From: a bacterium
GTDB taxonomy: Bacteria > B130-G9
Length of the DNA stretch: 64,000 nucleotides
NCBI GenBank assembly: GCA_035527515.1
Contig: DATLAJ010000057.1
Location: 858 to 64,857, forward strand
Direction: 5' to 3'
Every line of letters begins with the position of its first letter. Within the stretch, counting starts at the first letter, position 1. Shown here in pieces: positions 8,778 through 41,410 of this stretch. The position numbers were made by a program, and so were the translations under genes. Under the pieces are notes generated by a model, which made no database searches, was not told the origin of the DNA, and was given only the letters and a program-made list of their open reading frames with translations.

Positions 8778-8794
8778 GTAGGATGAGGCACAAC

Positions 8795-10048: not shown

Positions 10049-10058
10049 GGAGGTGGAA

Positions 10059-14457: not shown

Positions 14458-14460
14458 CCG

Positions 14461-15015: not shown

Positions 15016-15041
15016 GGAGGTCGAAGACGACTAGGCTGGAA

Positions 15042-16421: not shown

Positions 16422-16435
16422 CGGAGAAGAAGAGG

Positions 16436-16963
16436 ATGCAGGTGCTTGTGTACCCGCAGATTAGGTGCAGGCGTGCGCTAGTTCCGGTATTTGGTCCTCA
16501 TCTTGGGTGGCGCACGAGGTGGGTTCTGCTGCCGCCGAGAGAGAAGGTGCCGCCCGTGACGCCGCTGCCGGAGGGTCCGCATCCGGTGGTGGGGCCGATT
16601 GTGCACCCGACACCCCCGGACGAGGAGGGCGTCACCACAATCGAGGCCGCGCTCTGGAAGCAGTCCGACGGCTACTTCAAGGGCGATAGATACGACCCCG
16701 CCGGCATCACTGGCTACTGGTACCAGAGGTTTCACTTCAGCGTCGATGAGGAATGGCTGAATGCGGATGCACACAGAGACCGTGGTGATCCCTTGATCGC
16801 GTGCGGGCCAAATGACGGCGAACCGGGGGGGGAAGGCCTGTGCGGCCTTCCGGAGCATGAGAGCGAGCGGATAGACGTTATTACCCTCAAGCGCGCCCCG
16901 ATAATAGCCCTCACTGACGAGGCGCAGCCCGTTAAGAAGCTGAAAAAAGGCGGTCGAAGATGA
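16436..16963 (+). CDS. Array cassette A4'. It is a 5'-truncated gene A C-terminal module (175 aa).
   Basis: ATG at 16436 lies 15 nt after the B3 stop. It begins MQVLVYPQIRCRRALVPVFGPHLGWRTRW and carries a variant CGPNDGEPGGEGLC loop. Its stop overlaps the ATG of B4. Confidence 0.55.
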   Translation: MQVLVYPQIRCRRALVPVFGPHLGWRTRWVLLPPREKVPPVTPLPEGPHPVVGPIVHPTPPDEEGVTTIEAALWKQSDGYFKGDRYDPAGITGYWYQRFHFSVDEEWLNADAHRDRGDPLIACGPNDGEPGGEGLCGLPEHESERIDVITLKRAPIIALTDEAQPVKKLKKGGRR

Positions 16964-19053: not shown

Positions 19054-22000
19054 ATGTCATTGAGATGGGTCACGATCGTATGTTCGGTGTTCGTCTTTGT
19101 CATCGTTGGTTTGACCGTGTGCCGTGCTGGCGAATGGTCGGACTATGAGATCACACAGGATACAACTTGGGACCCGAGCGAGAACCCAATTGTCCTGATG
19201 CGTGATCTTACTATCCACAAGGTGAATCCTGATGATCCTAGCGACAGAGTTAAGCTGACGATCAATCCTGGGGTTGTAGTAAAGCTTGCCTCACACGTTG
19301 ACATATTTGTTGAGGGGCTTGTGGTCGCGGAGGAGGCGCTTTTTACCTCGATAAATGACGACAGCACGCCTGACGGAGCGTGGGAGGACAGTTCAGGAAC
19401 GCCACAGATAGGTGATTGGAACTCTGTCCACATCTACAACTACAATGCCATCTTCTCGGGCTGCACGTTTCGCTACGGCAAGTCAATAGAGATCGATGAT
19501 TGCTCGCCCACTTTTTACGGCAACCTGATCGAGCAATTCAGTCGATATGGTCTGTATATTGTTGCCCAGGACACGCTTGTCAGCCCGGTCATCGAGTGCA
19601 ACAAGATATTTGACATCGGCGAGCCTTACACCGATGACAATCCTGAGAACGGGAAGTTCGACCCCGGCCAGGAGGAGTATCAAGACCTCGACATGAACGA
19701 CCAGTATGACGCTGGCATCGGCATCTATTGCTACACACCACCTTTCTATTTTGGCCCGTGCGTTCCGCTGATTCGGTTCAACCAGATTGTTATGAGCACC
19801 GATCGCAGCGTCGCTCGGGGCAGCTTGCCAATAGTGTTTGAGAACACTCTGCCGATCATGCTCGACGTCGGGGGCTCACCGGAGAATCCGGTCCCTGATG
19901 GTAACCTGATTCGGCAAAGGGCGGATGATGACCGCTTCGTCTCGGCCATCGGCATAAAGGGCTATGTCAAGCCTGGCGAGCTGGACGATGATACCGGCGC
20001 TTACAAATACGTGGACTACTTCCTCCCGCTCGTTGACGACAGAGCGGTGGCCTCGGACCAGGTCTCGCCGACAAACCAACATCTCCCCTACATAGTTCTG
20101 GAAGACCTCGTCATCGCCGATGGCTGCGACCTATCCGTGCCGCCCAATTGCGTTGTCAAGTTCAGCGCGGACACGAGCGTCGAGATTCTGGGGACGATCG
20201 AGACCTCCAACCTGTCCGCATCCCGCAGCTATTTCACATCGCTTCATAACGACGTTTACGGGCTGAGGGTGCCTGGCAGCAACAGCCACCCCGCTCCTGG
20301 CGACTGGTATCAGTTCAGGATTTGCTGCGAGGATTGCCTGATCCAGAACAGCAACTTCAGCTACGGGACGTTCGTCAAGATCGATCAGTGCTGTCCGACA
20401 ATCATCAACAACACGGTCTCCAACTTCTATCTTTATGGTCTTTATGTATATGCCGAGTCGCACGCAGCAAAGCCGGAAATATCGCGAAACGTGATACAGG
20501 ACTGCGGCCACGTGGTCGATGCGGCAAGCGGCATTTACGAGGGCGGTGGCATCTGCCTCGAGACGGGGCGCGATTATTTGGGCCCGTGCGAGCCGACGCT
20601 TCAGGGCAACAGGCTGCTTAGTAATCATGGCTATCCATTGACGCTTCTTGGGACGTGCGACCCTGTTTACATCAACAACACCTTGATGGGCAACTCCTAC
20701 CGAGCCGTCGCGATAGGCGGGACTATACGCGGCCGGGGAGCGACGTGGGATGATGTAACCGGCTATCACTATCCTTACGTGGTCATAGACCCCGTGGTGG
20801 TGGCGGGAGGCTACAGGGCCGCCAACGGGCTTTCTACTGCCATCATCTCGAGCGACACGCTTGATGGCATCCTGGACACCCTCGTTGACGAGACCGCCGA
20901 CTGGAAGGCGAACGTCCTGACTGGCTCGATGCTGACTCCCAACACCGACCGGCCCGAACAGTTCGAGATAGTGTCCAACACCAGAACCTCGATTGTGGTT
21001 GGCTCCGACGTGTCCGGCATCGCCCAAGGCGGAGACCCCTACGAGTTCGTCGTGAAGGATACGGTCGTGGAAGTCCCTCTTGGAACGATAGTCAAGTTCG
21101 CCAAGGGGATGAGCATTTATGTGAAGGGTCAGCTCGAGCTCAACGGCACGACCCGCGACAGAGTCTATTTCACCTCTTTCAATGACGATTCCGCCGGCGG
21201 CTCCGTTCTTCTGTCGGGCTCAACGCCGATGCCTCAGCCGGGCGATTGGGAATACTTCAAGGTCGAGAACGACAACAACAAGATCGAGGAATGCATCTTC
21301 AAATACGGCACTTCGATCTACATAGATAGCTGCTCGCCGTTGCTCCAGCACAACGCCATCGCGATGTTCTCACGGGCGGGTATCCACTGCTACGCGCACA
21401 GCGCGAAGGCCTCGCCCTCCATCCTCAACAATGCGATCATGTGCAATCGCAATGGCGTTCGTTGTGAGACGGACACTGGGTTTACCGATCCCAATGGCGC
21501 GATGCCGATGATCCACTCCAATGACATCGTCAGCAACGAGGAGTATGGGGTCGTGAACCTCCAAGAGGGGGCAGAGATCGACGCCGTGCTCAACTGGTGG
21601 GGCGCCGTCGATGGCCCATCGGGAGATGCACCCGGAAGCGGAGACGGCATATATGACGTGTCCCTCTACAAACCATTCCAGGGCGAGCCCAACTTCGAGG
21701 CCGATTCGGCCCCTCCGGTGTTCTCGGATGTGTTCCCTGCGCCGTATTCGGTCGATGTGCAGACGACCACTATCATCATGTTGACGGTTACGGACGTCGG
21801 CAAGGGCATTGACACTAATTCTGTCTCGATAAAGGTCGATCATGGCGACGGTGAGGGCTTCGTGTCCGTGATGAAGGACGGCGAAGACCTCCACTACAAC
21901 GGGGGCTATGTGAGCCGCGAGAACGTCGCGAACGGCTACCGTTACAGCTATGTTCCCGGACGGTCATTCGCCGCAAACAGGCAGGTGTGCGTCAAGATGC

Positions 22001-24594
22001 AGATCGGCGATCTCGAGCTCTGCCCCAACAAGGCTCAATACACCTTCTGCTTCTGGACTGGTAGAAACATTGGGCTCACCTTTGGCCGAGTGGAGCCTGA
22101 GATCGGAACGGTCAAGACGCAGTTCACATACAGCGTTGACTTCTTCGACAGGGACCTTGCGGCTCCCGCATCTGCGCTGCTCTATATAGACAACATGCCA
22201 CGCAGCATGAGCCTCGTGGCGGGCGACCCGTGGGAGGGAACATACTCATACACCACGTCGTTGAAGGTCGGCTATCACACCTTCTACTTCGAGTTTGAGG
22301 GCGGCGGTGGCGCTGGCACGGTGCGGCTGCCCGAGCTCGGCGACGTGCCGCCATACTTCTACGGTCCGACTGTCCTATCGGAGGATACGACCAACACCTG
22401 GCCGATGTTCAGGCACGACCCCGTTCACAGCGGCAGGTCCCCGATCGCTGCGACCTCCGCACCGACGCTCAACTGGAGCTTCACCGCGGGCGATTACATT
22501 ATCTCCTCACCCGTGGTCGATGCTGACAACACCGTCTATTTCGGATGCTATGACGGCAACGTTTATGCAATGAACACTGATGGGACGGTCAAGTGGGCTG
22601 CCAGCACTGGGGATTACATCGCCAGCACGCCCGTCATCGACGAAAACGGGAACCTATACGTCGGCTCGGGCGACCATTATTTCTACAGCTTCAATCCGGA
22701 CGGCTCGCTCAACTGGACCTATAAGACCGGCGGCGAGATCGACTCTTCGCCTACAATAGGGATTGATGGAAATATCTACTTCGGGTGCGACGACGGTTAC
22801 CTGTACTCGATGACGTCAGACGGCAACCTGCGCTGGCAGTTCCACACTGGCGGCTGGGTAACGTCCTCGCCGGCGATATGGTTCGACGGGACGGTCTTTT
22901 TCGGCTCGGACGACAACAAACTCTACGCAGTCCGGCACGACGGCAACCTGCGCTGGAGCTATAATACTGGCGCGGTAATTACCTCATCGCCGGTCGTTGG
23001 ACCTGACGAGACGGCCTATGTCGGCGCTGGCTACCAGATACTCGCCATCAACTCCGACGGGACACTGAAGTGGCGCGTCAATGCCGACAACATTGTTCAC
23101 TCCTCGCCCGCGCTTTCTGATGACGGCGTGCTCTATGTCGGCTCCTATGACCACAACCTCTACGCAATAGAGACGTCAACGGGCACGGTCAATTGGACCT
23201 ACGTTGCCAACAACGTGATCCATACCTCCCCCGCGATCGACGCCAACGGGGACATCCTGTTCGGCTCCCACGACGGGAACCTCTACTGCCTGGGCAAGGA
23301 CGGGTCGCTACTGTGGCGCTTCTACGACCCGTTGAGGCCGGGATATGGCTTCAACGTCCACAGCTCGCCCGCAATCGGCCCGGACGGCAGCGTTTATTTC
23401 GGCTCCGAGGAGAAGCTCTATGCGCTGGCGGAGCTGCCCGTTCTCAACACGGCGCCCACGCTCTCCGATGCGTCTTGCGCGCCTTCAGGCAAGAGCACAA
23501 CTCGATATACGTTCAAGATCCACTACTTCGACCGCGAGCAGGAGCCGCCATCGGTGGCAAAGGTAATCGTGGACGACGCCGAGTATGCGCTCGCATTCGA
23601 TTCCGGGGAGGCGGCAGACGGCTACTACTCCGCTCGCATAATGCTCACGCCCGGGGAACACACCCACTACTACCTGTTCGCCGATGCGACAAGCAAGACG
23701 ACAAGGTATCCCGCGGTCGGCTCAATCGATGGCCCAAACATCGAGGAGGGTTCGCCAGGAACACCGCCGTTCACCCGCTCCGCGCCTCCAACAGTCTGGA
23801 TGGCCGGTTATTTCGGCTCTCACGTCTCTCAGCGGCTTGGCGGCAAGCTGCACGTTGTGGCCTATTGCACCGACCCGGACGACGACATCGCACGGGTTGA
23901 ACTGTGCTACGACGGCGAGCCACTTGTCCCACTCAACGACGATGGCCAGTCTCAGGACGGTCTCGCTGGAGATGGGGTTTACGGCTGTTTCGTCGATGTT
24001 GAGCCGGGCTATCCTGCCGGCTGCTACCTATTGGAGGTGGTGGCGACCGACGCCGAGGGCAACACGAGCAACGTCTGGCCCTATGTCACGATCGATGATT
24101 ATCCGCGGTTCGACCTCCCGGGACTTGCAGGCGTATCGTCCGCGGCAGTCTCGAACAGCGAGGTCATGCCGGTCGGCGGCAAGCCCGCATCGAATCTGAG
24201 CCTCAACCTACAGAACTACATCCTAGATTCAATACGCGGGGTCACCAGCCGAGATGTCGGCCCTGAGCCAGAGATACTCATGGCCGGCTATGGCAACTGC
24301 AAGATCGACCAGAATACGGGTGGCACGCTCTTTTTGAACGTCATAGTTAATGATCCAGATGGCCTCTCGAACATCGCCTCGGTCGAGGCGCACAGATCGC
24401 TTCAGGACCATGGTGATTTCTCGTTTGGCGGCGTCGAACTCAGCCGGCTTACTGCTGATGGACAGAGAGGCTACTACGGGGCGAACTGCCATATTGCTGG
24501 CGGCGAGCGAGGCCATCATCTAATAGAGGTCCAGGTGGCCGACAAGGACGGTAATTACAGCACATTCTTCCCGTACCTTGTCGTGACCCAATAG
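19054..24594 (+). CDS. Giant (1846 aa) secreted surface protein. It has a signal peptide, a right-handed beta-helix-like region (PbH1-like NNT/ISxN repeats), Ca-binding DxNxNG motifs, an 8-10 blade PQQ-like beta-propeller, and C-terminal Ig-like/CARDB-like segments.
   Basis: The N-terminus IVCSVFVFVIVGLTVCRA reads as a signal peptide. The EPYTDDNPENGKFDPGQEEYQDLDMNDQYDAG motif is shared with the proteins at 1-2096. Blades at residues ~1120-1480 have the form SSPVVDADNTVYFGCYDGNVYAMNTDGTVKW. An AT-rich promoter-like region lies upstream. Confidence 0.6.
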   Translation: MSLRWVTIVCSVFVFVIVGLTVCRAGEWSDYEITQDTTWDPSENPIVLMRDLTIHKVNPDDPSDRVKLTINPGVVVKLASHVDIFVEGLVVAEEALFTSINDDSTPDGAWEDSSGTPQIGDWNSVHIYNYNAIFSGCTFRYGKSIEIDDCSPTFYGNLIEQFSRYGLYIVAQDTLVSPVIECNKIFDIGEPYTDDNPENGKFDPGQEEYQDLDMNDQYDAGIGIYCYTPPFYFGPCVPLIRFNQIVMSTDRSVARGSLPIVFENTLPIMLDVGGSPENPVPDGNLIRQRADDDRFVSAIGIKGYVKPGELDDDTGAYKYVDYFLPLVDDRAVASDQVSPTNQHLPYIVLEDLVIADGCDLSVPPNCVVKFSADTSVEILGTIETSNLSASRSYFTSLHNDVYGLRVPGSNSHPAPGDWYQFRICCEDCLIQNSNFSYGTFVKIDQCCPTIINNTVSNFYLYGLYVYAESHAAKPEISRNVIQDCGHVVDAASGIYEGGGICLETGRDYLGPCEPTLQGNRLLSNHGYPLTLLGTCDPVYINNTLMGNSYRAVAIGGTIRGRGATWDDVTGYHYPYVVIDPVVVAGGYRAANGLSTAIISSDTLDGILDTLVDETADWKANVLTGSMLTPNTDRPEQFEIVSNTRTSIVVGSDVSGIAQGGDPYEFVVKDTVVEVPLGTIVKFAKGMSIYVKGQLELNGTTRDRVYFTSFNDDSAGGSVLLSGSTPMPQPGDWEYFKVENDNNKIEECIFKYGTSIYIDSCSPLLQHNAIAMFSRAGIHCYAHSAKASPSILNNAIMCNRNGVRCETDTGFTDPNGAMPMIHSNDIVSNEEYGVVNLQEGAEIDAVLNWWGAVDGPSGDAPGSGDGIYDVSLYKPFQGEPNFEADSAPPVFSDVFPAPYSVDVQTTTIIMLTVTDVGKGIDTNSVSIKVDHGDGEGFVSVMKDGEDLHYNGGYVSRENVANGYRYSYVPGRSFAANRQVCVKMQIGDLELCPNKAQYTFCFWTGRNIGLTFGRVEPEIGTVKTQFTYSVDFFDRDLAAPASALLYIDNMPRSMSLVAGDPWEGTYSYTTSLKVGYHTFYFEFEGGGGAGTVRLPELGDVPPYFYGPTVLSEDTTNTWPMFRHDPVHSGRSPIAATSAPTLNWSFTAGDYIISSPVVDADNTVYFGCYDGNVYAMNTDGTVKWAASTGDYIASTPVIDENGNLYVGSGDHYFYSFNPDGSLNWTYKTGGEIDSSPTIGIDGNIYFGCDDGYLYSMTSDGNLRWQFHTGGWVTSSPAIWFDGTVFFGSDDNKLYAVRHDGNLRWSYNTGAVITSSPVVGPDETAYVGAGYQILAINSDGTLKWRVNADNIVHSSPALSDDGVLYVGSYDHNLYAIETSTGTVNWTYVANNVIHTSPAIDANGDILFGSHDGNLYCLGKDGSLLWRFYDPLRPGYGFNVHSSPAIGPDGSVYFGSEEKLYALAELPVLNTAPTLSDASCAPSGKSTTRYTFKIHYFDREQEPPSVAKVIVDDAEYALAFDSGEAADGYYSARIMLTPGEHTHYYLFADATSKTTRYPAVGSIDGPNIEEGSPGTPPFTRSAPPTVWMAGYFGSHVSQRLGGKLHVVAYCTDPDDDIARVELCYDGEPLVPLNDDGQSQDGLAGDGVYGCFVDVEPGYPAGCYLLEVVATDAEGNTSNVWPYVTIDDYPRFDLPGLAGVSSAAVSNSEVMPVGGKPASNLSLNLQNYILDSIRGVTSRDVGPEPEILMAGYGNCKIDQNTGGTLFLNVIVNDPDGLSNIASVEAHRSLQDHGDFSFGGVELSRLTADGQRGYYGANCHIAGGERGHHLIEVQVADKDGNYSTFFPYLVVTQ

Positions 24595-24618: not shown

Positions 24619-27387
24619 TTGTCATCTTTCAGCGGGGGCCCACGCCGAAACAACCGACCTAGTGCGGTCAGGTCGGCGCTCGGGCCTATGCTGTTCCTGC
24701 TGGCGTTCTTCACCTATCTGAAGACCCTCTGCCCCACTATCTATGTCGGCGACAGCGGGGAGCTCGTCACGGCCGCAAGCTGCCTGGGCATACCTCATCC
24801 GCCGGGCTACCCGATCTTCGTTATCTTGATCAGGCTCACAAGCATTGTCTTCCCGTTTGGCTCGCTCGCCGAACGGTGTGCCCTCGCCTCGGCGCTGTTC
24901 GGGGCGGCGAGTGTGTTCGTTCTCTTCAGAATCTGCCTTTGCGTATCCGAAAGCGATCGCCGTAATAACCCGCCGCCACGCTTCGCTGTCCTGGGCTCGA
25001 CGATAGCTGCCGTTGCCTTCACATTCTCCCTCACTTTCTGGTCGCAGACAACGATCGCAGAGGTCTATGCGCTTACTCTTCTGATGATTCTCTTGATACT
25101 CTATCTCGTTGTGCTGTGGCAGCGTGAACCAGATGGAAAGAGGGACCACAGGTTGCTCCTTGCCGCTGCGTTCATAGGCGGCCTGGGGCTGTCGAGCCAC
25201 CACACAGTCGCCCTAATCCTCGCAGCGCTAGTCGTCTATGTAATATACAGATCCCCCCGACTGCTCCGAAACAGCGGCGTAGTCTTCGGCGCAACGGTGC
25301 TCGGCGTTCTCGGGGCATCGGCCTACCTCTATCTCGCGTTCCGCGCCTCGACCAACCCACCGCTCAACTGGGGCATGCCAGAGACGCTCTCGCGATTTTG
25401 GGACCATATCCTACGCCGCGAATACGGCAGTTCGAGTCACACTGAGCGAACGTTCGCCCTTGTCATCAAACAGCTGGGCTTCTACGCTTCCATGCTCGTC
25501 AGACAGTTCACGCCGCTGGGCGTCATCCTCTCGGCAATCGGGCTCGCAGCTGCGGTCCGACGCCGAAACAAGGCGCTGCTCATGCTTCTTGCGTGCTTCT
25601 TGCTCAGCAGCCTGTTCTTCATCCTATATACCAATTACAGGCTCATCCCCCGCGACAAGTCCCTAGTCGAGGTCTTCTTCATCCCATCCTTCGCCGTCGC
25701 CGCCATCTTCCTCGCCCTCGGCGCCTCATCCGTGCTGCGGAAGGTTTGTGACCTGATAAAGTCGCGCAGCATGTCCGCTGTTGCGGCCATCGCCTTAGCG
25801 GTCTTGGTGTGTGCGCTGCCGTTGTTTGCCAACTACTTCTACAACGACAAGAGCCGCAACTTCCTCACATACGACTACGGCGTCAACGTCATTAAATGCT
25901 TGCCAAGCGACGACGCCATCGTTTTCGTTGACCGGGACATGGAGGTCTTCACGCTGCTCTTTCTGAAGGATGTCGAGCGCACCTGTCCAAACATCGAAGT
26001 AATCGACCGCTCAGGCATCTTGAGGCGTGATTTTTACGTCAAGGACATGAGGCTGATGCCCGAAAAGCAGCGCCAGGTCGCTCAGTTGCAGGCGGAGCAT
26101 CGGCTGTTTGGGGAGGAGACGAGGCCTATATGCTACGTGCCGGGCGTCGATCTCGGCGGCATCAAGGAGTTCAAGCTCAAGCCGGTCGGCGTCGCAACGC
26201 TGCTCGTTCCGGCCAAAGATGCGGGCGAGTTCTCTGAACGTGAGCGAGATGTGCCCGATACTCTCGTCAGCAGGAGCCTCGAAGACCCCACCATCTTCAA
26301 GGACTACACGTCTCGGTGCGTGGCCATGGTTTGGCAGCTACAGCTCGGCGACTCTTACTACTGGCAGGGCGATCGCGACAAGGGGAAGAGGTTATGGAGC
26401 GATTCAAGCAGGACTGCGGGGGACATTATGATCCTGCACACAATGCTGGCGGAGAAGGCTGTTGGCTGCGGAGAGACACAAGTTGCAATAGAAGAGTACA
26501 AAAAGATCGCAGATATCAGGCCCCAAGACCAGCTCGTCCGCATGAACCTCGGCATGTTGCTCGAGCGCGAGGGGAGGCTTCGCGAGGCGCTCGACGCGTT
26601 TGACAGCGTGCGCCGGGCAGACCCCACGTTCCTGCCAGCCCTCAAAGCCTGCGTCAACATCGAGGTCAGGCTCAAAAACTTCAAGAAAGCGATAGGGACG
26701 GCGAACCAGATCGCAAAGCTAGCGCCTCGCGACCCGAACTCGCTTCGCAATCTTGGCATCGTGCACGAGCTTGCCGGCGAATACCAGGAGTCGCTCGCTG
26801 CGTATCGGCGTTCTGTGGCGGTGAGTCCCACGTTTGCTCTGGCCTACGCGGATATAGCGCTTCTTCAGGAGAAGATGGGGGATGAAGACGCGGCAAGAGA
26901 TGCGATGCGGCGTGCGCTTGCGCTCGATCCTGACCTTCCGACGAGGGATGCGCGGTTGAGTCAGAGCAGCTTGGCCGTGGAGCTGCTGGCAGAGGGCGAG
27001 GCGTCAGGGACGGAGGACCTTGAGAGCCTTTCGGCTGATCAGCTCCAGAGGAGGATGAGAGCCCTCGTCGCTGCCAAGCGTTATTCGCTGGCGATTGAGG
27101 TGTGCAAGCGCCTTGCACAGCTCAGGCCTAACAGCCCGCAACCGATGGTTGAGATGGGAATGCTGCTCGACCAGACTGGCAGGTTGCCGCAGGCCGAGGC
27201 GGCGTTCAAGAAGGCGCTTTCGATCGATCCTGATTCTGTCGAGGCGCACAATGCGCTTGGCGTCGTCTATGCTAAGCGCAAGCAATACAAAGATGCGCGG
27301 CGCGAGTGGGAGGCGGCGCTTAAGCTGAAGCCGGATTCCGCGGGCACGCTGAGCAATCTCAAGCAGCTCGAGCAGCTCGGGTATTAA
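24619..27387 (+). CDS. DUF2723-type polytopic membrane protein (putative glycosyltransferase, PMT/ArnT-like) with C-terminal TPR repeats.
   Basis: The N-terminus TIYVGDSGELVTAASCLGIPHPPGYPIF is typical of the DUF2723 family. There are about 11 TM segments. The C-terminal 350 aa contain multiple TPR-like units (AxxxLGxxYxxxGxYxEA). Confidence 0.55.
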   Translation: MSSFSGGPRRNNRPSAVRSALGPMLFLLAFFTYLKTLCPTIYVGDSGELVTAASCLGIPHPPGYPIFVILIRLTSIVFPFGSLAERCALASALFGAASVFVLFRICLCVSESDRRNNPPPRFAVLGSTIAAVAFTFSLTFWSQTTIAEVYALTLLMILLILYLVVLWQREPDGKRDHRLLLAAAFIGGLGLSSHHTVALILAALVVYVIYRSPRLLRNSGVVFGATVLGVLGASAYLYLAFRASTNPPLNWGMPETLSRFWDHILRREYGSSSHTERTFALVIKQLGFYASMLVRQFTPLGVILSAIGLAAAVRRRNKALLMLLACFLLSSLFFILYTNYRLIPRDKSLVEVFFIPSFAVAAIFLALGASSVLRKVCDLIKSRSMSAVAAIALAVLVCALPLFANYFYNDKSRNFLTYDYGVNVIKCLPSDDAIVFVDRDMEVFTLLFLKDVERTCPNIEVIDRSGILRRDFYVKDMRLMPEKQRQVAQLQAEHRLFGEETRPICYVPGVDLGGIKEFKLKPVGVATLLVPAKDAGEFSERERDVPDTLVSRSLEDPTIFKDYTSRCVAMVWQLQLGDSYYWQGDRDKGKRLWSDSSRTAGDIMILHTMLAEKAVGCGETQVAIEEYKKIADIRPQDQLVRMNLGMLLEREGRLREALDAFDSVRRADPTFLPALKACVNIEVRLKNFKKAIGTANQIAKLAPRDPNSLRNLGIVHELAGEYQESLAAYRRSVAVSPTFALAYADIALLQEKMGDEDAARDAMRRALALDPDLPTRDARLSQSSLAVELLAEGEASGTEDLESLSADQLQRRMRALVAAKRYSLAIEVCKRLAQLRPNSPQPMVEMGMLLDQTGRLPQAEAAFKKALSIDPDSVEAHNALGVVYAKRKQYKDARREWEAALKLKPDSAGTLSNLKQLEQLGY

Positions 27388-29484: not shown

Positions 29485-31953
29485 TCAGCGCCGGCGCGTC
29501 GATAAAACTGGCTTTATATGCCAGATATCCTGCGCGTACTCCCGGATGGAGCGGTCGCTCGAGAACTTGCCCATCCGGGCCACGTTCAGTATCGCCTTCT
29601 TCGTCCAAGTGGCGACATCAGCGAACGTTTCCGAGGCACGGCGCTGCGCCTCGAGATAGGACGGGAAGTCGGCGAGGTGGTAGTATCTGTCGTTGTGGTC
29701 AAGAAGGTTGTGAAATACCCACCTAAACAGGCCGGGTTCGTTGGCCGAGAACATGTCACCGTTGATCGAATCCAACACTCTCTTGACATCCGGATTCGTC
29801 TGGTAGTGCTCCCGCGGGTTATATGACCTTTCCCGGTCTAGCCTCTGAACGTCAGCGATTTTCAGGCCAAAAATGAAGATGTTGTCCTCTCCAACCTCCT
29901 CCCGAATCTCTATGTTCGCTCCGTCCAGCGTGCCGATGGTCAGCGCCCCGTTCAGCGCGAACTTCATGTTCCCTGTGCCCGAGGCCTCCATGCCGGCGGT
30001 AGATATCTGCTCGCTCAGGTCGGTCGCTGGCACGATCACCTCAGCGAGCGAGACGCGGTAGTCAGGGACGAAGGCGACTTTTAGAAGGCCATCTACCCTC
30101 GGGTCATTGTTGATGACGCGCGCCACGTTGTTTATGAGCTTGATGATCATCTTGGCAACCCAGTATCCGGGCGCGGCCTTGCCGGCGAAAACGAACGTGC
30201 GAGGGACGGCGGGGACCTTTCGGTCTTCCACGAGGATCAAATACTCGCGAATAATATGCAGGACATTCAGTAGCTGGCGCTTGTATTCGTGAATCCGCTT
30301 TGCCTGCACGTCGAACAGGGAGTTCGCGTTCACCACGACAGAGGTAGTGTCCTTGATCACCTTCGCTAGCCTCTCCTTGTTGGCAAGCTTGACTCGTCGG
30401 AATCGCTCCTGAAACCCCGCGTCGTCTGCGCAGGGCTCGAGCCTGGCTAGCTGGTCGAGGTCCTTGATCCAATCATCGCCAATCCGCTCCGTGATCAGGT
30501 CTGCCAGCCCGGGGTTCGCAAGTTTCAGCCACCGACGAGGCGTTATTCCGTTGGTCTTGTTGTTGAACTTCTCTGGCCATATCTCGTAGAAGTCGGGGAA
30601 GAGAACTGTCCTGACGAGTCCCGAATGAAGGGCGGAGACGCCATTGACGGAATGGCTTCCGATTGTGGCGAGATGCGCCATTCGAACCTGCTTTTGCTCG
30701 CCCTCCTCGACAATCGATGTTCGGCGGAGTTTGTCCACATCGCCGGGGTAGAGTGTGGCGATGTCATCCAGGAAACAGCGGTTTATCTCATAGATGATCT
30801 GTAGGTGGCGTGGCAGAACTCGTTCGAACAACGCGACAGGCCACCTCTCGAGCGCCTCTGGCAGCAGAGTGTGGTTTGTGTAGGCCATTGTCCTGCAAGT
30901 GACGTCCCACGCGCTTTCCCATGGCACCGATTTCTCGTCAACAAGTATCCGCATAAGCTCCGCAACTGCCAACGCAGGGTGCGTGTCGTTAAGCTGGATG
31001 GCGACCTTTTCGGGGAACATCTCGAAGGATGCGTGTGCGATCTCGTATCTCCTGACGATGTCCCTGACCGCGCACGCTACAAGGAAATACTCCTGTATGA
31101 GTCGCAATTCGCGGCCCTCGGCCTTGGCATCTGAGGGATACAGAACTTTCGACACGGTCTCGGAGCCGATCTTCTGCTCGACCGCCTTGAAGTAGTCCCC
31201 ATCGTTGAATATCTCCATGTCGAACTCCTGAGAGGCGCGGGCGGAGTAAAGCCTGAGGCAGTTGACAGTTTCACCTCCGTAACCGGCTATTGGCATGTCG
31301 TAGGGCACGCCGATGATGAGCTGCCAATCCAGCCACATCGGGTTGTCGGCGCCATCTTTGGCCCGATAGTTCTCGACCCGGCCGTAGATTGGCACGGGGC
31401 AGGCCTTGCCGTATCGCTCGAGCTCCCACGGCGTCTTGTAGGCAAGCCAGCTGTCTGGCTTCTCCTTCTGATACCCGTCGGCTATCTCCTGCCTGAACAG
31501 CCCATATTCATAGTTGATACCATAGCCGTAGCCCGGTAAGTCGAGCGTCGCCAGAGAATCAAGAAAACAAGCCGCCAGCCGGCCGAGCCCGCCATTGCCG
31601 AGCGCAGCGTCGAACTCACTGTTCTCAACCGCTAGAGGGTCTGCGCCGAGCTTGAGAATGACATCTTGGCAGATGTCGGAGAGACCCAGATTGCAGAGGT
31701 TATTGCCAAGTGAGCGGCCCATGAGGAACTCGGCGGAAAGGTAGTGCACCCTTTTGGCGTCGGCCTTACTGTGGCGTAGTCTGGTCTTGAGCATCCTATC
31801 GACGAGCAGGTCCCTGACGGCAAGAGAGACGGCCCAAAAAAAGTCTTTTGCTCGTGCCTCCTTGAGAGCCTTGCCCAGAGAAAACTTGATATGCTGTCGA
31901 ACTGACCGCTCAAACGCCGCAGCTGATACTTCACTTCTCACGTCCGTTATCAT
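29485..31953 (-). CDS. glgP: Glycogen/alpha-glucan phosphorylase.
   Basis: The PLP-site region EASGTGNMKFALNGALTIGTLDGANIEI is present. The protein is 822 aa with typical family motifs throughout. Confidence 0.85.
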   Translation of the reverse strand: MITDVRSEVSAAAFERSVRQHIKFSLGKALKEARAKDFFWAVSLAVRDLLVDRMLKTRLRHSKADAKRVHYLSAEFLMGRSLGNNLCNLGLSDICQDVILKLGADPLAVENSEFDAALGNGGLGRLAACFLDSLATLDLPGYGYGINYEYGLFRQEIADGYQKEKPDSWLAYKTPWELERYGKACPVPIYGRVENYRAKDGADNPMWLDWQLIIGVPYDMPIAGYGGETVNCLRLYSARASQEFDMEIFNDGDYFKAVEQKIGSETVSKVLYPSDAKAEGRELRLIQEYFLVACAVRDIVRRYEIAHASFEMFPEKVAIQLNDTHPALAVAELMRILVDEKSVPWESAWDVTCRTMAYTNHTLLPEALERWPVALFERVLPRHLQIIYEINRCFLDDIATLYPGDVDKLRRTSIVEEGEQKQVRMAHLATIGSHSVNGVSALHSGLVRTVLFPDFYEIWPEKFNNKTNGITPRRWLKLANPGLADLITERIGDDWIKDLDQLARLEPCADDAGFQERFRRVKLANKERLAKVIKDTTSVVVNANSLFDVQAKRIHEYKRQLLNVLHIIREYLILVEDRKVPAVPRTFVFAGKAAPGYWVAKMIIKLINNVARVINNDPRVDGLLKVAFVPDYRVSLAEVIVPATDLSEQISTAGMEASGTGNMKFALNGALTIGTLDGANIEIREEVGEDNIFIFGLKIADVQRLDRERSYNPREHYQTNPDVKRVLDSINGDMFSANEPGLFRWVFHNLLDHNDRYYHLADFPSYLEAQRRASETFADVATWTKKAILNVARMGKFSSDRSIREYAQDIWHIKPVLSTRRR

Positions 31954-32044: not shown

Positions 32045-32896
32045 CTATTCGAAGGCCTTGACCGCCTCGTCAACAGTTTCGAAAGACTCGCAGATTCTGT
32101 GCATTCTGACTACCTCAAACAGGGCGCGGACCGCCTTGGTCATCCCTGCTATCTTCAGGTCGCCTCCTCTCGCGTTCAATATCCTCAAACAGGAAAGAAA
32201 AGCGCCCAGCCCAGAACTATCGACAAAATCGAGGTTCCCGATGTCTAGAACAACTTGGCCGCTCTCGTTCAGGATTGGCAAGATATCCCGCTTGAACTCT
32301 TCAACATTACTCGCCTCCAGAGAGCGTCCTGGCAGCTTTACAACAGAAACATCTCCGACCTTCTCAACCTTCAGTTCCATTACTATTGCTCCTTGGCTGA
32401 ATTTCCTGCGATTCTGTTTTTTCTGACCGTCGTTCCTATATTTAGCCAGAACAATGCAGTTCCGACCATCCTTTCCCCGCAAATACATCACCTTATCTAC
32501 GCTGTGTTCGATGATGTAAAGCCCGTAACCGCCCTCACGACCCTTGTCCAACATCGGCAACTGCTGGGGCTCGGGGTGAAACTCGACGCCCCAGTGATAT
32601 AACTTCATCACAACCCGATCAGCATAGGTGTCAGCTGATATCTCAATGCGCCCATCGGTGCGCCCATTATACGCATGCCTGATGATATTGCTCGTGGTCT
32701 CAGTCAAAGCTAGTTCAAGCAAGTTGGTAGCTTCCTCATCGAGCACAGAGGCATCACAGACGTGTCGGACGAAGTCGCGGACCGCGGCCAGCTCAGCAAG
32801 GTCGCTGGTTACTTTTTTCTCTGCATGAGATAAGAGCTCAGGTTCCTGTCGGTTCTGACTGCTGACAGCGTTTGACATCTTGCCCAAACGTTTCAA
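32045..32896 (-). CDS. Fusion protein. The N-terminal part is an anti-sigma-factor serine kinase (RsbW/SpoIIAB-like HATPase_c). The C-terminal part is a STAS anti-sigma-factor antagonist domain (RsbV/SpoIIAA-like).
   Basis: The N-box is TTSNIIRHAY and the G-box is GGYGLYII. These are followed in the same ORF, with no stop, by MELKVEKVGDVSVVKL...LDFVDSSGLGAFL (STAS with the conserved DSSG phospho-Ser motif). Confidence 0.6.
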   Translation of the reverse strand: MKRLGKMSNAVSSQNRQEPELLSHAEKKVTSDLAELAAVRDFVRHVCDASVLDEEATNLLELALTETTSNIIRHAYNGRTDGRIEISADTYADRVVMKLYHWGVEFHPEPQQLPMLDKGREGGYGLYIIEHSVDKVMYLRGKDGRNCIVLAKYRNDGQKKQNRRKFSQGAIVMELKVEKVGDVSVVKLPGRSLEASNVEEFKRDILPILNESGQVVLDIGNLDFVDSSGLGAFLSCLRILNARGGDLKIAGMTKAVRALFEVVRMHRICESFETVDEAVKAFE

Positions 32897-32972: not shown

Positions 32973-34292
32973 TCAAGACTCATTATCAATCTTATCAAAC
33001 GGCGTTTCCGAGTCAACGCTTATATCTCGATCGCTTCCAGCGTCTCTCATACGCCGGTTAATGAACTCATTGGCAGCATCAAGCCAGTGCGCCAGCATAT
33101 TGCATAGATCAACAAAACCCGCGCAGCGCCGGGCGGCCTTAAGGGCGTTTGCGAGCGCGCGTGGGACATAGCGCACGAGTTCAGACTCGCCTCGCTGCCC
33201 AACCAAGGATACATAGGTGCCTGCCGCCTTGAGGCATCTTTGGACCGCGCACACACAAAGCGCCCTGCTCAAGCCAAGCCGGCGCAGAGTGTTACGAGGC
33301 CTTGCCGGCAGTAGCGAGAAATAATGGTCAAAGAGCTCCTGTTGATCGTCACGCTCAAGCGGCACGTAAGGGTCAAAGATGAGCGAGGCAATGTCGTAGA
33401 GAATCGGGCCTAGCCGCGCATCCTGAAAATCGATCACATGAGGCCTGGCGTTTCTAATCATGAGGTTGCGCGAGTGGTAGTCGCGGTGCGTAAAGACCAG
33501 TTCCTGGCTCATCATCTCCCTGCATATCGCCTGGAAGTCTCTCTCGATGATGCTTCTTTCCGACCGGCTTAACTTTCTCCGTAGCACGATGTGCGAGAAT
33601 GAGTCTAAGAAGCTGTTCAACTCCCATAAGAATCGATCGGCTGAGAATGAGTAGCTGTAGGCCGTGCAGTCTCGGGGGACTTCCGGGGGCGGAAACTGCA
33701 TGTAAACGAGATATTCGATAGCGGTTCGGTAGATGTCCTTGACGTTCTCCGTGCCGGCCTGGCCGATCAGATCGAAAAGCCTCGTATCCCCCAGGTCCTC
33801 TATGACAAGAAAGCCCAGGTGGTGGATGGCGAGATACATTTTCGGCACTGGCACACCACAGTTTTCGATGTAGCGCCCAACATCCACGATGATGCGGCTT
33901 GCTCTAGCCGAGCCATTGCCCGGCAGCAACATTGCGATTAGGGAGCATTCCTGAGGCCTGTCCAGGCCGCCGAAATCCTGGCCCAGTTCTGCGGCTTCGG
34001 AGCAGCTTTGGAGAAACCGTTGAGCCTTCTCCGTATCGGCAAACTCTAACCTGAAGAACTGTCTGGTCGAGACATCGCCTCTTAGTTTGGTGAGGACAAG
34101 GCCTGCGGTAGCGTCAGCAACCTGCTCGATGTGGGGTGGAAACGTTGAGTGCTTCGACATCACCGTTGGACAGGCACAAGAGAATACTTGTCTTGTCCAC
34201 AGAGGAGCTGCCGTAGGCACAAGAACATGGCGGCGCTTGAGGTCACCCCGTGACCCTGGGCGCCGCCAGCATCCACATCCTCGGTTGCGCAA
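32973..34292 (-). CDS. Phosphotransferase enzyme family (APH/ChoK-like kinase fold) protein.
   Basis: It carries the Brenner/catalytic motifs FTHRDYHSRNLMI and VIDFQDARLGPILYDIASL. The protein is 439 aa with an unassigned N-terminal ~120 aa. Confidence 0.55.
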   Translation of the reverse strand: MRNRGCGCWRRPGSRGDLKRRHVLVPTAAPLWTRQVFSCACPTVMSKHSTFPPHIEQVADATAGLVLTKLRGDVSTRQFFRLEFADTEKAQRFLQSCSEAAELGQDFGGLDRPQECSLIAMLLPGNGSARASRIIVDVGRYIENCGVPVPKMYLAIHHLGFLVIEDLGDTRLFDLIGQAGTENVKDIYRTAIEYLVYMQFPPPEVPRDCTAYSYSFSADRFLWELNSFLDSFSHIVLRRKLSRSERSIIERDFQAICREMMSQELVFTHRDYHSRNLMIRNARPHVIDFQDARLGPILYDIASLIFDPYVPLERDDQQELFDHYFSLLPARPRNTLRRLGLSRALCVCAVQRCLKAAGTYVSLVGQRGESELVRYVPRALANALKAARRCAGFVDLCNMLAHWLDAANEFINRRMRDAGSDRDISVDSETPFDKIDNES

Positions 34293-36613: not shown

Positions 36614-36940
36614 ATGACAAGGCACCAATTCGCTGTAGTGATAGAAAAAGATAAGGATGGCTGGTTCGCAATGTGTCCTGACCTCCAGGGCTGCTACACC
36701 CAAGGGGATACTTACGAGGAAGCCCTCGAGAACATCAAGGACGCCATCCGGCTACACGTTGAGGACAGGATAGAGATAGAAGTCTCTATGTCGGACGAAG
36801 ACCTGATCGAGCAGCGCCGTGATGAGCCTCCCGTCCGTTTAGGGAATTCCTGGCTGAGAGGAAGGAGGGGCGACGGGCCAGCCTCGAAGAACCGTGATTC
36901 GCGGTTCAGCTATACCGATTCAAAGCCCGAAGTGTTTTAG
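36614..36940 (+). CDS. HicB-like (UPF0150) antitoxin-family protein, apparently orphan.
   Basis: The sequence FAVVIEKDKDGWFAMCPDLQGCYTQGDTYEEALENIKDAIRLHVE is a canonical HicB N-domain. An aaggag RBS lies 7 nt upstream of ATG 36614. No HicA-like ORF is adjacent. Confidence 0.6.
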   Translation: MTRHQFAVVIEKDKDGWFAMCPDLQGCYTQGDTYEEALENIKDAIRLHVEDRIEIEVSMSDEDLIEQRRDEPPVRLGNSWLRGRRGDGPASKNRDSRFSYTDSKPEVF

Positions 36941-37615
36941 CAACGAGGCAAAAAGGGTGGATAGGAACGCGAGGAGCAGAAAGCCAAATCCCACATTTAT
37001 GGCCACCTTCTGTTTGCGCATCCAGAGCCTATAGAGGGCAGTCGGGGTGATGTTATCTGTGCCCCCTCCTGAGCCACCGTAAATTATGGGATGATACCTG
37101 TCCTCCATTTTGATTCGTTCCTGCCAGCCCCACATAAGCATCAGGCCTGCAAACAAGCCGATTAAGGCTGAGTAAAGCTCCAGTACAAAGCTAAATTTGG
37201 GCGAGGGCCATGCATAGAAATGCCAGAAAGACAACACGGATGAGCATGCAAGAAAACTGAGAAGCGCAAGGCTGAACAACTGAGCATGGATGAAGCGTAC
37301 TCGCAGTAACCATGAGATGGTCGCACCAATGAGTTTTGCTGCAGTCTGGGTGCAATCTCTGGGACCCACCTTGAACCTGAGCGCTTTCTGATCAGATTCA
37401 GACAGATTCACCCAAGGTAAGTTTGAATTCCCGCCTCCGCTATGAATGCGTTGGACCAGAATATACCTCCTCCGACCATTCCAGTGGAGCTTCAGTGCTC
37501 TGTCTTGACGCAGGCTTTGTTCACCAGGCGGCGTTCGTATGATGCACCACCTTGGGGGAAGCTCTTCCGATGACCTCTGTACTCTGGCGATTTCAACTGT
37601 GATTCTTGATTGCAT
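36920..37615 (-). CDS. Hypothetical membrane protein of 231 aa with 3-4 predicted C-terminal TM helices.
   Basis: Only the ORF and the hydrophobic segments FSLALLSFLACSSVL and LIGLFAGLMLMWGW are visible. No family was recognised. Confidence 0.3.
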   Translation of the reverse strand: MQSRITVEIARVQRSSEELPPRWCIIRTPPGEQSLRQDRALKLHWNGRRRYILVQRIHSGGGNSNLPWVNLSESDQKALRFKVGPRDCTQTAAKLIGATISWLLRVRFIHAQLFSLALLSFLACSSVLSFWHFYAWPSPKFSFVLELYSALIGLFAGLMLMWGWQERIKMEDRYHPIIYGGSGGGTDNITPTALYRLWMRKQKVAINVGFGFLLLAFLSTLFASLLKHFGL

Positions 37616-38180: not shown

Positions 38181-38406
38181 GGATCGAGGGCGGTTCGTGA
38201 ACCGCCCCTACGGCAGGGATCCGGCGTTCCTGTCACCCAACCTCCCGGTAACCACATCACGAGCCGAAGCAGACCGTTCTGCCTCGCCGTCAGATTGCGC
38301 AGCAATATGTCGGCCCATGCTTCGAAAATCGCGGAGGGGGGGCGGGGGACGAGCGATTGCGTCCCCCGATCTAATCAATCACACCATAGAATTGTAGAGT
38401 GATTGG

Positions 38407-38745
38407 CTATCCGCCGACTATCTCGTTTAGTCCCTCGATTAGCTGCTCCATCTGCTCAGGAGACAGCGAATCTACTAGATCGCCGATTCGCTCGACCGAA
38501 AACGTTCGGACCTGGCTTATCTTGGCCCAAGACGGCTTGGGCAGCTTCGATGGGTCCAGGGCGAGCGTTAAGGGGAAGCCTGCTCGTTGAGGCTGGCTGG
38601 TTATCGCCATCGCGATGACGGTGCCCGAACGTTCATTGAACACATCGTGGCTGATTATTATGACCGGGCGTTTTCCGCCTTGTTCACGTCCCCGGACGGG
38701 GTTGAGGTCGGCCCACCGTATCTCTCCCCTTAGTATTCGGGCCAT
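38407..38745 (-). CDS. mazF: MazF/PemK-family type II toxin (mRNA interferase).
   Basis: It carries the family motifs [27 protein letters not shown] and AMAITSQ. The protein is 112 aa. Confidence 0.7.
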
Positions 38746-38972
38746 CGAGCCAGCTCCTCGAACAGACCTTCCTCTGCTATCGCCTGTTCAGCGACCGGGT
38801 CCAGCTTCGCGCACTCCTGCGCGAGGCGCGTGCGCTCCAGACGGTTGAGCTTATCCTCAATTGCCTCTTGAATTGCCCTGCTCCGACTGGGGAAAACCCG
38901 GTTCTTGACGAGATGGTCGAGGCGCTTGAGCGTCTTTTTGTTGATACTGATTGCGACTTTTGCAGTTTGCAT
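38730..38972 (-). CDS. Ribbon-helix-helix (CopG/MazE-like) antitoxin.
   Basis: It is 80 aa, overlaps the toxin start by 16 nt, and has an N-terminal [18 protein letters not shown] beta-strand/helix pattern. Confidence 0.55.
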
Positions 38973-39202
38973 ATCTCACCTCCAGTATTACCATAAGTCA
39001 TACTGGAGATGCTGTCAACATTGGCATAATCTATGCCGGTCAGCTCGCACGTGGAATAAGAAGATAAGAACGCGAAGTGACTTATTGGACACCCTCTTGA
39101 TGGCCGTTAGCTACGACGCGAGCCTATCAAGATATTATGGCGAGATGCCTCAAACCAGAGCGGTCTCGAGATGCGATGCTGACGCTAGCCCTGCGGCGAG
39201 CC

Positions 39203-41410
39203 CTAGGGGAAGGCAAAGTATCTGCCAGGGTGCTCGGTGGGGAACATGAGAGGGACTTTGCCCAGCGGCGTGTCACTTCTCAGCGCTGGCCCAAGCTGCG
39301 TTGACCAAGGCGGAAGCGTGAGCCGCGAACTCGAGATTAAGCCCTGCGATTGCACAAGCTGCGCCTCGCGGATTGGAACGCTGCGACCCCTGTCGAGAAC
39401 TGTAACGCGAACCTCGTCGATGTGGCCAGCGAGCAGCCACTTCTCGTTTTGCTCGAGGCGCACGGTGGCCTCGGTCGCCTCGAAGCTAGCTGGAAGCGTG
39501 AGCAGGGTGTGGGAGTTGTTTGAAATGAGCTCGAGTTGCGCGGTGACGTTTTCCAGTGGTCTATCAGCGACGATATCGAGCCGGTCGATCAGGCCCACAT
39601 CGGTATCAAGGGGCAACCGAACCTGGTCGCCCGGAGATGTGCTGTCAGCGAATCTTGCATGCACCACGTCGTGACGCAGGTTCAAGTAGGACCGCTGACG
39701 AGCGAGCACGCGGGCCGAGAGGTCTGGGAGCTCCAGAGCCTTTTGACCATCGAACGCAAAAGCCCGAACAGACATCCCAGCCGGGATGGATTTGTATTGA
39801 AAGCTGCTCACCCAGTCACTGAAGGGCAGAGAATCGACGCGTTTGCCATATTCCGCACGTATTGGCGCCCGTATGTTCCAGCAAGATGAGCTCCTGTCGA
39901 TTAGGGACTTGTCGCGGAAGACGATGAGAACGAGAGTGTTGTCCGGGACCTCAGGCTGCGCCGCCACAATCGCCTTGGGAAGACGAGCACACTCGCTCGC
40001 CTCATCGACAAACATCGCGAAGAGCTTCAGGAAGCCGGCCATGTAGGCGCCCACTAATAGTAGGACAATCCCAACGATCAAGAACTTGAGCGGAGCGCGA
40101 GACATTCTCGGTGAAAGCCGTCGGCGCAAAGCGCATCTTGTCGCAACGGCGGCGGCCGCGACAAGGGCGATGGCATACCTTGTGGTCGCGGTGCTCGCGC
40201 TCGAGGCCCCCTGGGCGAAAAAATCGGTCCAACCTGCCCGAATCAGCGCGAACACCCAATAGATTACTGAGGCGGCTATCACCCAATCGAGAGCTGCGGA
40301 GAGCATGGAGCGTCTTTGGCGGTCGAGAATCGTCTCCGGCAGCAGCACAAGAAGATAAGCCATCAGGCCCGCGACGCCAAACGAGCAGAGCAAGACGCGA
40401 TGGTGGCCAACCCCCGCAAGGGGGAACGCCAAAGCTGGCGTGATAGCTATCCATAACACCAGGAAGAGCGTCAACCTCCAATTGGCCCTGAAACCCACGT
40501 AAAGGATGATCACGGCTACTACGCAGAGCAGGGGTGAGAACTTCAGCGGGAATACGTTTGTGTAGAGGATTGTGGGCAGCCTCCTAATGGCCTGGAGGAA
40601 CGTGAGTTCCCTTACGCACGCGAAGTAGTAGTTGTTGATGACGACGTTCGTGCTGAGCAACAGCGCTCTGAGGCCGAGAAGGGCGGCAGCCATGACCCAC
40701 AGCGGCAGATTGACCTTCAAAAGGCGTCGGAAGAGACTTCTTCTGCCCTTTTCCTCTCTCCATATCAGTTCGTAGATCAATAGCAGAAGCGGCATGAAGA
40801 TCGCGGACTCGTAGAAGAGAAAGCTGGCTGCGTATGTAATGCAGGCTAGGACAATCCTGGTGCGAGATGGGCTCTTGCGGTAGCCGGGTCCCACAAGCCA
40901 GAACGTAAGAAGCGCAAACAGCGCTGAGTTGAGGCCCTGTATCTGTGACATCCAGAACACAGGCTCGACGTGGCATGTCATCACGGCAAATATCAGCGAG
41001 CCGAGCGCCCCTACGAGAAAAGATCGGGACAGCGCCTCGAGGCTCAGAAATACCAGAAGGCATATCATGGCATAGACGGCAGAGTTGATCGCCCTGGGCA
41101 AGACTGTGTTTGTCCCGAACAGCTTATACTCGGTCGCCTGCATCATTGCGGCTAGCGGCCGGTAGTACTGCGATCCGTAATGCCTCTGGAGAACGACTGG
41201 ATAGTGCGCTATCTGCCCCCAAGTCTGCGGTCTGAAGGACACCCAGCTCTCTGTCAAGTAGTATGCTTTCAGACCCGAGGCGGTCATCGCGATCGGAAGC
41301 AGCACGATCGCGACAATGAACCATCGCCTGGCTTTGGCGCCCGGCGATTGAAGTCTGTCAGGCCAGAACTGCACGCGCTCTCCGATCTCAACAGAGTTTT
41401 CTTGCCGCAC
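39203..41410 (-). CDS. Large polytopic membrane protein. It may be a GT39/ArnT-like or DUF2079-like glycosyltransferase with a C-terminal periplasmic domain.
   Basis: The N-terminal ~430 aa contain about 12 TM segments and the C-terminal ~300 aa are soluble. It has a GTG start, and the upstream region contains paired 38-nt repeats. Confidence 0.35.
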   Translation of the reverse strand: MRQENSVEIGERVQFWPDRLQSPGAKARRWFIVAIVLLPIAMTASGLKAYYLTESWVSFRPQTWGQIAHYPVVLQRHYGSQYYRPLAAMMQATEYKLFGTNTVLPRAINSAVYAMICLLVFLSLEALSRSFLVGALGSLIFAVMTCHVEPVFWMSQIQGLNSALFALLTFWLVGPGYRKSPSRTRIVLACITYAASFLFYESAIFMPLLLLIYELIWREEKGRRSLFRRLLKVNLPLWVMAAALLGLRALLLSTNVVINNYYFACVRELTFLQAIRRLPTILYTNVFPLKFSPLLCVVAVIILYVGFRANWRLTLFLVLWIAITPALAFPLAGVGHHRVLLCSFGVAGLMAYLLVLLPETILDRQRRSMLSAALDWVIAASVIYWVFALIRAGWTDFFAQGASSASTATTRYAIALVAAAAVATRCALRRRLSPRMSRAPLKFLIVGIVLLLVGAYMAGFLKLFAMFVDEASECARLPKAIVAAQPEVPDNTLVLIVFRDKSLIDRSSSCWNIRAPIRAEYGKRVDSLPFSDWVSSFQYKSIPAGMSVRAFAFDGQKALELPDLSARVLARQRSYLNLRHDVVHARFADSTSPGDQVRLPLDTDVGLIDRLDIVADRPLENVTAQLELISNNSHTLLTLPASFEATEATVRLEQNEKWLLAGHIDEVRVTVLDRGRSVPIREAQLVQSQGLISSSRLTLPPWSTQLGPALRSDTPLGKVPLMFPTEHPGRYFAFP

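Follow-up and report, generated by a model that had tools for sequence, protein, structure and literature searches.

A probable recent stop-codon loss joining the kinase and STAS genes of a bacterial partner-switching module

A single open reading frame in the 64,000-nucleotide stretch of bacterial DNA analyzed here (the window) encodes an RsbW-like kinase followed by a complete STAS domain, and we conclude that it is very probably a genuine and recent fusion of a two-gene partner-switching module, kinase then STAS, brought about by the loss of a single stop codon. [quoted passage not shown] TAG serves as an ordinary stop in this genome: of 20 large ORFs, 6 terminate with it, the fused ORF among them. 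The locus provides a clean natural example of the birth of a gene fusion, one stop-codon base joining two in-frame, translationally linked genes, and the split and fused alleles, at 90-95% identity, form a natural pair with which to probe the role of tethering in a partner switch.

Domains and predicted structure of the fused protein

The N-terminal domain (residues 21-153; 32438..32836, minus strand) is identified as a GHKL serine kinase of the RsbW/SpoIIAB type by Pfam, alignment, structure model, and Foldseek alike. Pfam HATPase_c_2 (PF13581) matches residues 30-152 (E 1.2e-22; 80.8 bits, cutoff 27.4), and a Foldseek search of the PDB returns RsbW (6m37_C, E 4e-9, target TM 0.86), SpoIIAB (1th8_A, target TM 0.78), and the RsbW domain of Rv1364c (3ke6); the scores for the NCBIfam RsbW and SpoIIAB equivalogs NF003144 (45.1 vs 145), TIGR01924 (36.6 vs 155), and TIGR01925 (17.3 vs 135) all fall well short of their cutoffs. 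The N-box (E66TTSN70IIRHAY, with E66 at 32699-32701 and N70 at 32687-32689, minus strand) and the G2-box (G122GYGLYII, with G122-G125 at 32522-32533, minus strand) are both in place, and E66, N70, G123, and G125 are invariant across ~160 family members. The Glu and Asn of the N-box serve in Mg-ATP binding and catalysis. The G1-box position is occupied by His101 (32594-32596, minus strand), in the alignment column where RsbW ('ADEGDSF') and SpoIIAB ('RDEGVGI') have Asp; the G1-box Asp (DxGxG), which contacts adenine in GHKL proteins, is thus absent. Across the family, however, the position is His in 90 members, Asp in 56, and Tyr in 15, and since His is the majority state we regard His101 as characteristic of the family, not as a defect. 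We considered and rejected a pseudokinase: with His common in the family, and the N-box, G2-box, and acceptor serine invariant, there are no grounds for asserting that activity has been lost. Use of ATP by the window kinase is putative, His101 standing in place of the adenine-contacting Asp.

The C-terminal domain (residues 173-283; 32048..32380, minus strand) is an RsbV/SpoIIAA-like STAS domain by HMMs, structure model, and Foldseek. Pfam STAS (PF01740) matches residues 176-278 (E 8.9e-17; 61.2 bits against a cutoff of 22.6); the general anti-sigma factor antagonist model TIGR00377 is passed (57.5 vs 53.45), and the NCBIfam SpoIIAA equivalog is failed (50 vs 115). Foldseek finds RsbV (6m36_B, target TM 0.81), TM1442 (0.76), and SpoIIAA (1til_B, 0.68). 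The putative phospho-acceptor, placed by alignment, is Ser227 (32216-32218, minus strand) in the motif D226-S227-S228-GLG; all 82 family members with a STAS domain have this serine, which corresponds in alignment to the SpoIIAA serine that was changed to Ala in PDB 1TID to trap the kinase complex. An AlphaFold2 model of the whole protein (mean pLDDT 74) has folded domains at 21-153 and 176-282, with disorder predicted at 110-122, the ATP-lid, and at 157-172, the linker; the secondary structure over 176-282 fits the SpoIIAA/RsbV fold of four strands and four helices, and a helix (228-241) starts directly after S227. The first-pass annotation had read the ORF as an RsbW-like kinase and a complete STAS domain in one polypeptide, and had singled out the N-box IIRHAY, the G-box GGYGLYII, and the DSSGLG serine. 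The single ORF, the Pfam HMMs, AlphaFold2, and Foldseek agree with this reading, each motif is present, and the STAS fold of the C-terminal domain is borne out by structure prediction.

Origin and reality of the fusion

In every relative 73-95% identical to the window, the syntenic locus has two genes, one for a kinase of 157-177 aa and one for a STAS protein of 111 aa, within a gene order common to the window and its close relatives (HU, APH-like kinase, kinase, STAS, glycogen phosphorylase), and the closest database relatives of the fused protein, at 74-94% identity, match its kinase half only. Loci L001 and L004 share 93% DNA identity with the window over 4.7 kb, and L002 and L003 share 86%. 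The window junction reads AAA AAA CAG AAT CGC AGG AAA TTC AGC CAA GGA GCA ATA GTA ATG, and that of L001 and L004 reads AGG AAA TAG GAT CGC AGG AAA TGC AGC CAA GGA GCA ATA GTA ATG; the segment CAAGGAGCAATAGTA before the ATG is common to both, and four further substitutions lie near the stop-codon change. Codon 161 of the fused ORF (CAG, Gln161; 32414..32416, minus strand) thus occupies the position at which the kinase gene of L001 and L004 stops, with TAG. Because the spacer is in frame and stop-free, the linker QNRRKFSQGAIV (residues 161-172; 32381..32416, minus strand; pLDDT ~28) is the old stop codon plus the old 33-nt spacer. The Shine-Dalgarno sequence of the former STAS gene (AAGGAG; 32389..32394, minus strand) is retained 8 nt upstream of an internal ATG (Met173; 32378..32380, minus strand), which in relatives initiates the separate 111-aa STAS gene.

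In the 90% cluster, each of the seven distinct kinase-only proteins (90-95% identity) has RNDSQRK followed by the stop at its end, which argues that TAG is ancestral and CAG derived. A T-to-C change on the coding strand would have turned the kinase's TAG stop into CAG (Gln161), and since no further stop interrupts the in-frame 33-nt spacer, translation runs on into the STAS gene; the product would be kinase(1-160)-QNRRKFSQGAIV-STAS(173-283). In L002 and L003 the spacer has one extra base, so that the tail of the kinase is shifted into another frame overlapping the STAS start, while the Shine-Dalgarno sequence and ATG are kept; what is conserved in the spacer is therefore its function in starting translation, not a coding frame. 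We also entertained programmed read-through or selected in-frame spacing, as kinase and STAS share a frame, with one stop between them, at 32 of 69 split loci, but loci were ranked by tblastn score, which favors in-frame ones, and we attribute the excess to this selection artefact.

With a stop at codon 161 in all close relatives, a single base decides whether the fusion exists at all, and a sequencing or assembly artefact (a true TAG misread as CAG) would dispose of it. We regard this as improbable in the extreme. The exact fused protein is on record in 6 contigs; one ENA assembly (L027) and two Logan assemblies (L028 and L029, from runs SRR8554643 and SRR8554511), are 100% identical to the window over 5.2-6.9 kb, CAG included, and the fused allele is also found in JGI metagenomes and an NCBI MAG. 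The recurrence of the same fused allele in independent assemblies makes a random assembly or base-calling error very unlikely, and CAG is accompanied by the four nearby substitutions, unlike a random base-call error; the earlier claim that no stop separates the domains is sound on the same grounds. All sightings of the fused allele nevertheless represent one clonal sequence. A candidate for a second, diverged fused allele (P0174) proved to be the same sequence with its TTG start written as L, and there is therefore no sign that the fusion has persisted through divergence. One STAS protein at least 90% identical to that of the window is labelled Candidatus Coatesbacteria, the sole clue to taxonomy.

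The first-pass annotation had suggested that the fusion might be a self-inhibited intramolecular module released by a phosphatase; an old, selected, lineage-specific device of this kind, in which a tethered substrate inhibits its own kinase, would gain from the kinase-STAS fusions of other lineages, some apparently ancient (those of the ~650-700 aa clade), from the reported action of Rv1364c on its own STAS domain, and from a predicted flexible linker, 9 residues longer than in natural fusions, that would make docking plausible. Rv1364c and the database fusions were already known, however; in the window the fusion is a recent TAG-to-CAG stop loss limited to one clonal allele, relatives 90-95% identical are all split, and the linker is an unmodified intergenic spacer, Shine-Dalgarno sequence and ATG included, in which no optimization can be seen. 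The suggestion of a designed switch is thus unsupported, and we consider it quite unlikely. A neutral or mildly deleterious read-through lesion, in which the kinase simply acquires a C-terminal extension and the module either works through free STAS or decays, is possible though on balance doubtful: the very recent date of the event, the retention of the internal Shine-Dalgarno sequence and ATG, and the single clonal allele all suit it, but both domains are fully intact, natural fusions in the same order are tolerated or selected elsewhere, and the strain is abundant enough to have been assembled from several samples.

Relatives and known partner switches

A profile search of 1.84 billion representatives yielded 568 clusters at E <= 1e-30. 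Among the best 150 of the 568, ~40 are PP2C-kinase-STAS proteins (many of 650-700 aa), ~11 consist of kinase and STAS alone, with lengths of 255-291 aa, and the rest are PP2C-kinase proteins without STAS. Because a fused profile favors fused matches, a metagenome scan gives a fairer picture: 80 metagenome loci plus the genome locus L005, minus three without a STAS match, left 78 loci at 37-63% identity, of which 70 are split, 3 fused (L036, L068, and L005), and 5 STAS-only or truncated. In 50 of 73 cases the kinase forms the C-terminal part of an ORF that also encodes PP2C, most of the others being cut by a contig end. Taken with the 70 split loci, these PP2C-kinase ORFs indicate that the family norm is a [sensor/REC]-PP2C-kinase gene followed by a separate STAS gene, and the clade of the window, with its stand-alone kinase, is a reduced version of that family. 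At two loci, L026 and L033, the module is preceded by an Hpt protein and a REC-PP2C. The architecture of P0003-P0011 and L036, ~50% identical to the window protein, is PP2C-kinase-STAS. Apparent full-length fusions in Acidobacteriota, Melioribacteraceae, and others from a genome scan turned out on ORF analysis to be split genes, L005 alone being fused. Covalent PP2C-kinase-STAS and kinase-STAS fusions, as predicted from their sequences, recur in the family. The novelty attached to the fusion by the first-pass annotation therefore does not survive the search for homologs: together with Rv1364c, hundreds of clusters in databases make a kinase fused to its substrate an already known architecture.

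In Bacillus the antagonist, kinase, and sigma factor are separate proteins, with genes in that order. The window protein resembles RsbW/RsbV and SpoIIAB/SpoIIAA in both folds, the N-box Glu and Asn, the G2-box, and the DSSGLG motif; it differs in the order of kinase then STAS, in the lack of a sigma gene, and in the replacement of the G1-box Asp by His.

Rv1364c (MursiF) of Mycobacterium tuberculosis unites sensor, PP2C, GHKL kinase, and antagonist domains in one protein, and reportedly adds phosphate to its own STAS domain and removes it again (PMC7693655). As in the window protein, an RsbW-type kinase is followed directly by an RsbV-type STAS in a single polypeptide and in the same order. 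The window protein, in contrast, has neither sensor nor PP2C and is only 283 aa long, the relationship between the two is remote and detected by fold only, and a recent stop-codon loss in the window stands against an established architecture in Rv1364c.

The HsbR/HsbA system of Pseudomonas aeruginosa and CrsR/CrsA of Shewanella consist of a REC-PP2C-kinase and a separate STAS protein (PMC6482189), a layout shared with the wider family (L026, L033, and most metagenome relatives). The window kinase differs from HsbR in standing alone, without REC or PP2C, and in being fused to its STAS, and the neighboring genes concern glycogen and glucose-6-phosphate, as opposed to flagella or biofilm for HsbR/HsbA. 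HsbA has the non-sigma partners FlgM and the cyclase HsbD (PMC6482189), with which the missing sigma gene beside the window module would fit. In Synechocystis, the partner-switching pair Slr1861/Ssr1600 and SigC couple carbon status to growth (PMC12329169). Compared at the domain level, this system is a precedent for partner switches in carbon metabolism; unlike the window it has separate proteins and a sigma output, and no link to glycogen phosphorylase has been reported for it.

Possible mechanism, internal start, and gene neighborhood

By analogy with the RsbW/RsbV, SpoIIAB/SpoIIAA, and Rv1364c paradigms, from which we infer phosphorylation of Ser227, the kinase domain would use ATP to phosphorylate the tethered serine, within one chain or between the two chains of a kinase dimer; unphosphorylated STAS would bind and occupy the kinase, phospho-STAS would release it, and a PP2C phosphatase encoded elsewhere would reset the switch. 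The tether, a predicted disordered linker of ~20 residues, would raise the local concentration of STAS and fix part of the pool at a ratio of 1:1. With the STAS ribosome-binding site and ATG intact inside the ORF, internal initiation probably still yields free STAS, and a strict 1:1 stoichiometry therefore cannot be assumed. The output is probably something other than a neighboring sigma factor, and the downstream genes point to control, direct or indirect, of glycogen catabolism.

Other fused genes carry traces of the same internal start. Of 66 fused proteins of the family, 63 have Met as the first residue of STAS, whereas the columns on either side vary, and this Met extends to the deep ~650-700 aa clade, whose members share <50% identity among themselves. 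In all of the independent fused lineages with DNA, a small sample of six (the window, L005, L036, L068, L114, and L115), the STAS ATG is preceded at a distance of 5-16 nt by an SD-like motif; the corresponding frequencies are 63 of 72 at genuinely separate STAS genes, 2 of 39 at other in-frame Met codons, and 10.4% of all codon positions. This pattern points to an internal start from which free STAS may still be made by fused genes. Alternatively, the Met at the STAS start could be structurally entrenched, or the fusions could be repeated and recent.

Downstream of the fusion, 91 nt away on the same strand, lies a glycogen phosphorylase gene (29485..31953, minus strand), the candidate output; no terminator-like site was found in the 91-nt gap. 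Neither a sigma-factor nor a PP2C gene, hidden or otherwise, is present among the ORFs of at least 150 aa in the 64-kb window, in keeping with what the first inspection had reported, and the window protein itself, which begins ~20 residues before the kinase domain, has no match to the PP2C domain (PF07228). In diverged lineages, too, glycogen phosphorylase adjoins the module, in L026 and L033 (followed by G6PD and OpcA) and in L032, and it is convergent with the module in L114; among metagenome relatives grouped at 90% identity, 10 of 43 informative clusters also show the adjacency. When the first ORF downstream was classified with Pfam at 50 loci, phosphorylase came up 9 times, G6PD 4, NTP_transferase 2, and alpha-amylase once, and no sigma factor was found, the single Sigma70_r4_2 match being a LuxR/GerE-type protein. 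The module thus recurs beside genes for glycogen and glucose-6-phosphate catabolism, which makes for a candidate link. None of the papers searched connects partner switching with glycogen phosphorylase.

A broader proposal would make the kinase/STAS family, whether or not PP2C is present, a switch for glycogen catabolism in place of a sigma factor, with STAS or kinase acting directly on phosphorylase or on the glgP-zwf-opcA operon, two products from each fused gene (the tethered fusion and, through a conserved internal Shine-Dalgarno sequence and ATG, free STAS), and the split and fused states toggled by single stop changes. We hold this only tentatively and think it rather unlikely to prove right as a whole; were it true, the strain of the window would have been caught in the act of switching from the split to the fused state. 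Two comparative observations, the near-universal internal start codon of fused genes and the placement beside glycogen phosphorylase or G6PD, might lead to a metabolic function of partner switches, apart from sigma factors, in poorly studied phyla, and it is the internal-start and glycogen-phosphorylase leads that we consider most worth following.

On the upstream side, the fusion is preceded by an APH-fold kinase gene (32973..34292, minus strand; 395 aa in public gene calls), a distant relative of AmgK-like sugar kinases scoring far below the curated cutoff, which is syntenic only within the close clade.

The junction and the G1 box of the fused kinase-STAS gene

Around the codon at which the fused kinase-STAS reading frame (window 32045-32896, minus strand) has lost its stop, the window reads GAC GGT CAG AAA AAA CAG AAT and L001, a syntenic relative with separate kinase and STAS genes, reads GAC AGT CAG AGG AAA TAG GAT. 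The 18 nt that span the lost stop (window 32411-32428, minus strand) contain 5 nucleotide differences from L001, and since the two loci diverge by only about 7% over their whole length, the changes are locally clustered at the junction.

In the family alignment, His101 of the kinase domain (window 32594-32596) stands where GHKL kinases have the Asp of the G1 box, a residue in contact with adenine. Histidine is the majority residue at this position (H 90, D 56, Y 15) in the PP2C-linked kinase family as a whole. Broken down by architecture, the majority is Asp in fused proteins (D 43, H 17, Y 6) but His in proteins without the fusion (H 72, D 13, Y 9, A 1).

Genes flanking the module

Upstream of the module lies an APH-fold gene (32973-34292, minus strand) that is distantly related to the MurNAc/GlcNAc anomeric kinase AmgK, scoring 102 bits against the AmgK model (cutoff 550), and that may encode a sugar kinase; its synteny with the module is confined to the close clade. 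Farther away, window 38404-39007 is 92.5% identical to positions 2042-2645 of a second syntenic relative, L002, where an RHH_1 antitoxin and a PemK toxin are encoded, and the window segment is likely to be a toxin-antitoxin pair conserved between the two. Neither the 231-residue ORF at 36920-37615 nor the 735-residue ORF at 39203-41410 (both minus strand) matched any family in Pfam or NCBIfam.

Large repeat proteins and an uncharacterised gene block

On the plus strand, the window encodes three very large PQQ/beta-propeller proteins (12-2096, 2214-5474, and 19054-24594), the largest of which has 1846 residues and also contains beta-helix and DUF1565 regions; the ORF at 19054-24594 is followed by a gene for a TMEM260-like O-mannosyltransferase-TPR protein (24619-27387). 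An AAA_16/STAND-like NTPase gene (5545-6747) directly precedes eight consecutive plus-strand ORFs (7668-18327) of 369, 424, 462, 568, 443, 184, 459, and 455 residues, in which Pfam recognized essentially no family, the sole match being a Reg_prop repeat in 15042-16421. These eight ORFs are an uncharacterised, operon-like block.

Irregularities in related loci

Many genes in four related loci (L026, L030, L031, and L033, from ENA ERZ250395xx "contig_" assemblies), including those for phosphorylase, G6PD, and PP2C-kinase/STAS, are split into neighbouring fragments, a pattern suggestive of long-read assemblies prone to frameshifts; calls of split or fused genes at these four loci cannot be relied upon. 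In L032 (NCBI GCA_030841365.1), the STAS ORF (604-1161, protein P0017) carries, immediately ahead of its final helix, an in-frame segment of about 70 residues from the N-terminus of glycogen phosphorylase, and a phosphorylase gene lies 19 nt downstream; the segment is either genuinely inserted or a product of chimeric assembly. In L099, the kinase stop and the STAS ATG are separated by a spacer (about 2810-2915) with two tandem copies of a 42-nt unit, and because each copy harbors a hairpin (GCGCACA...TGTGCGC), the repeat resembles a small REP-like insertion.
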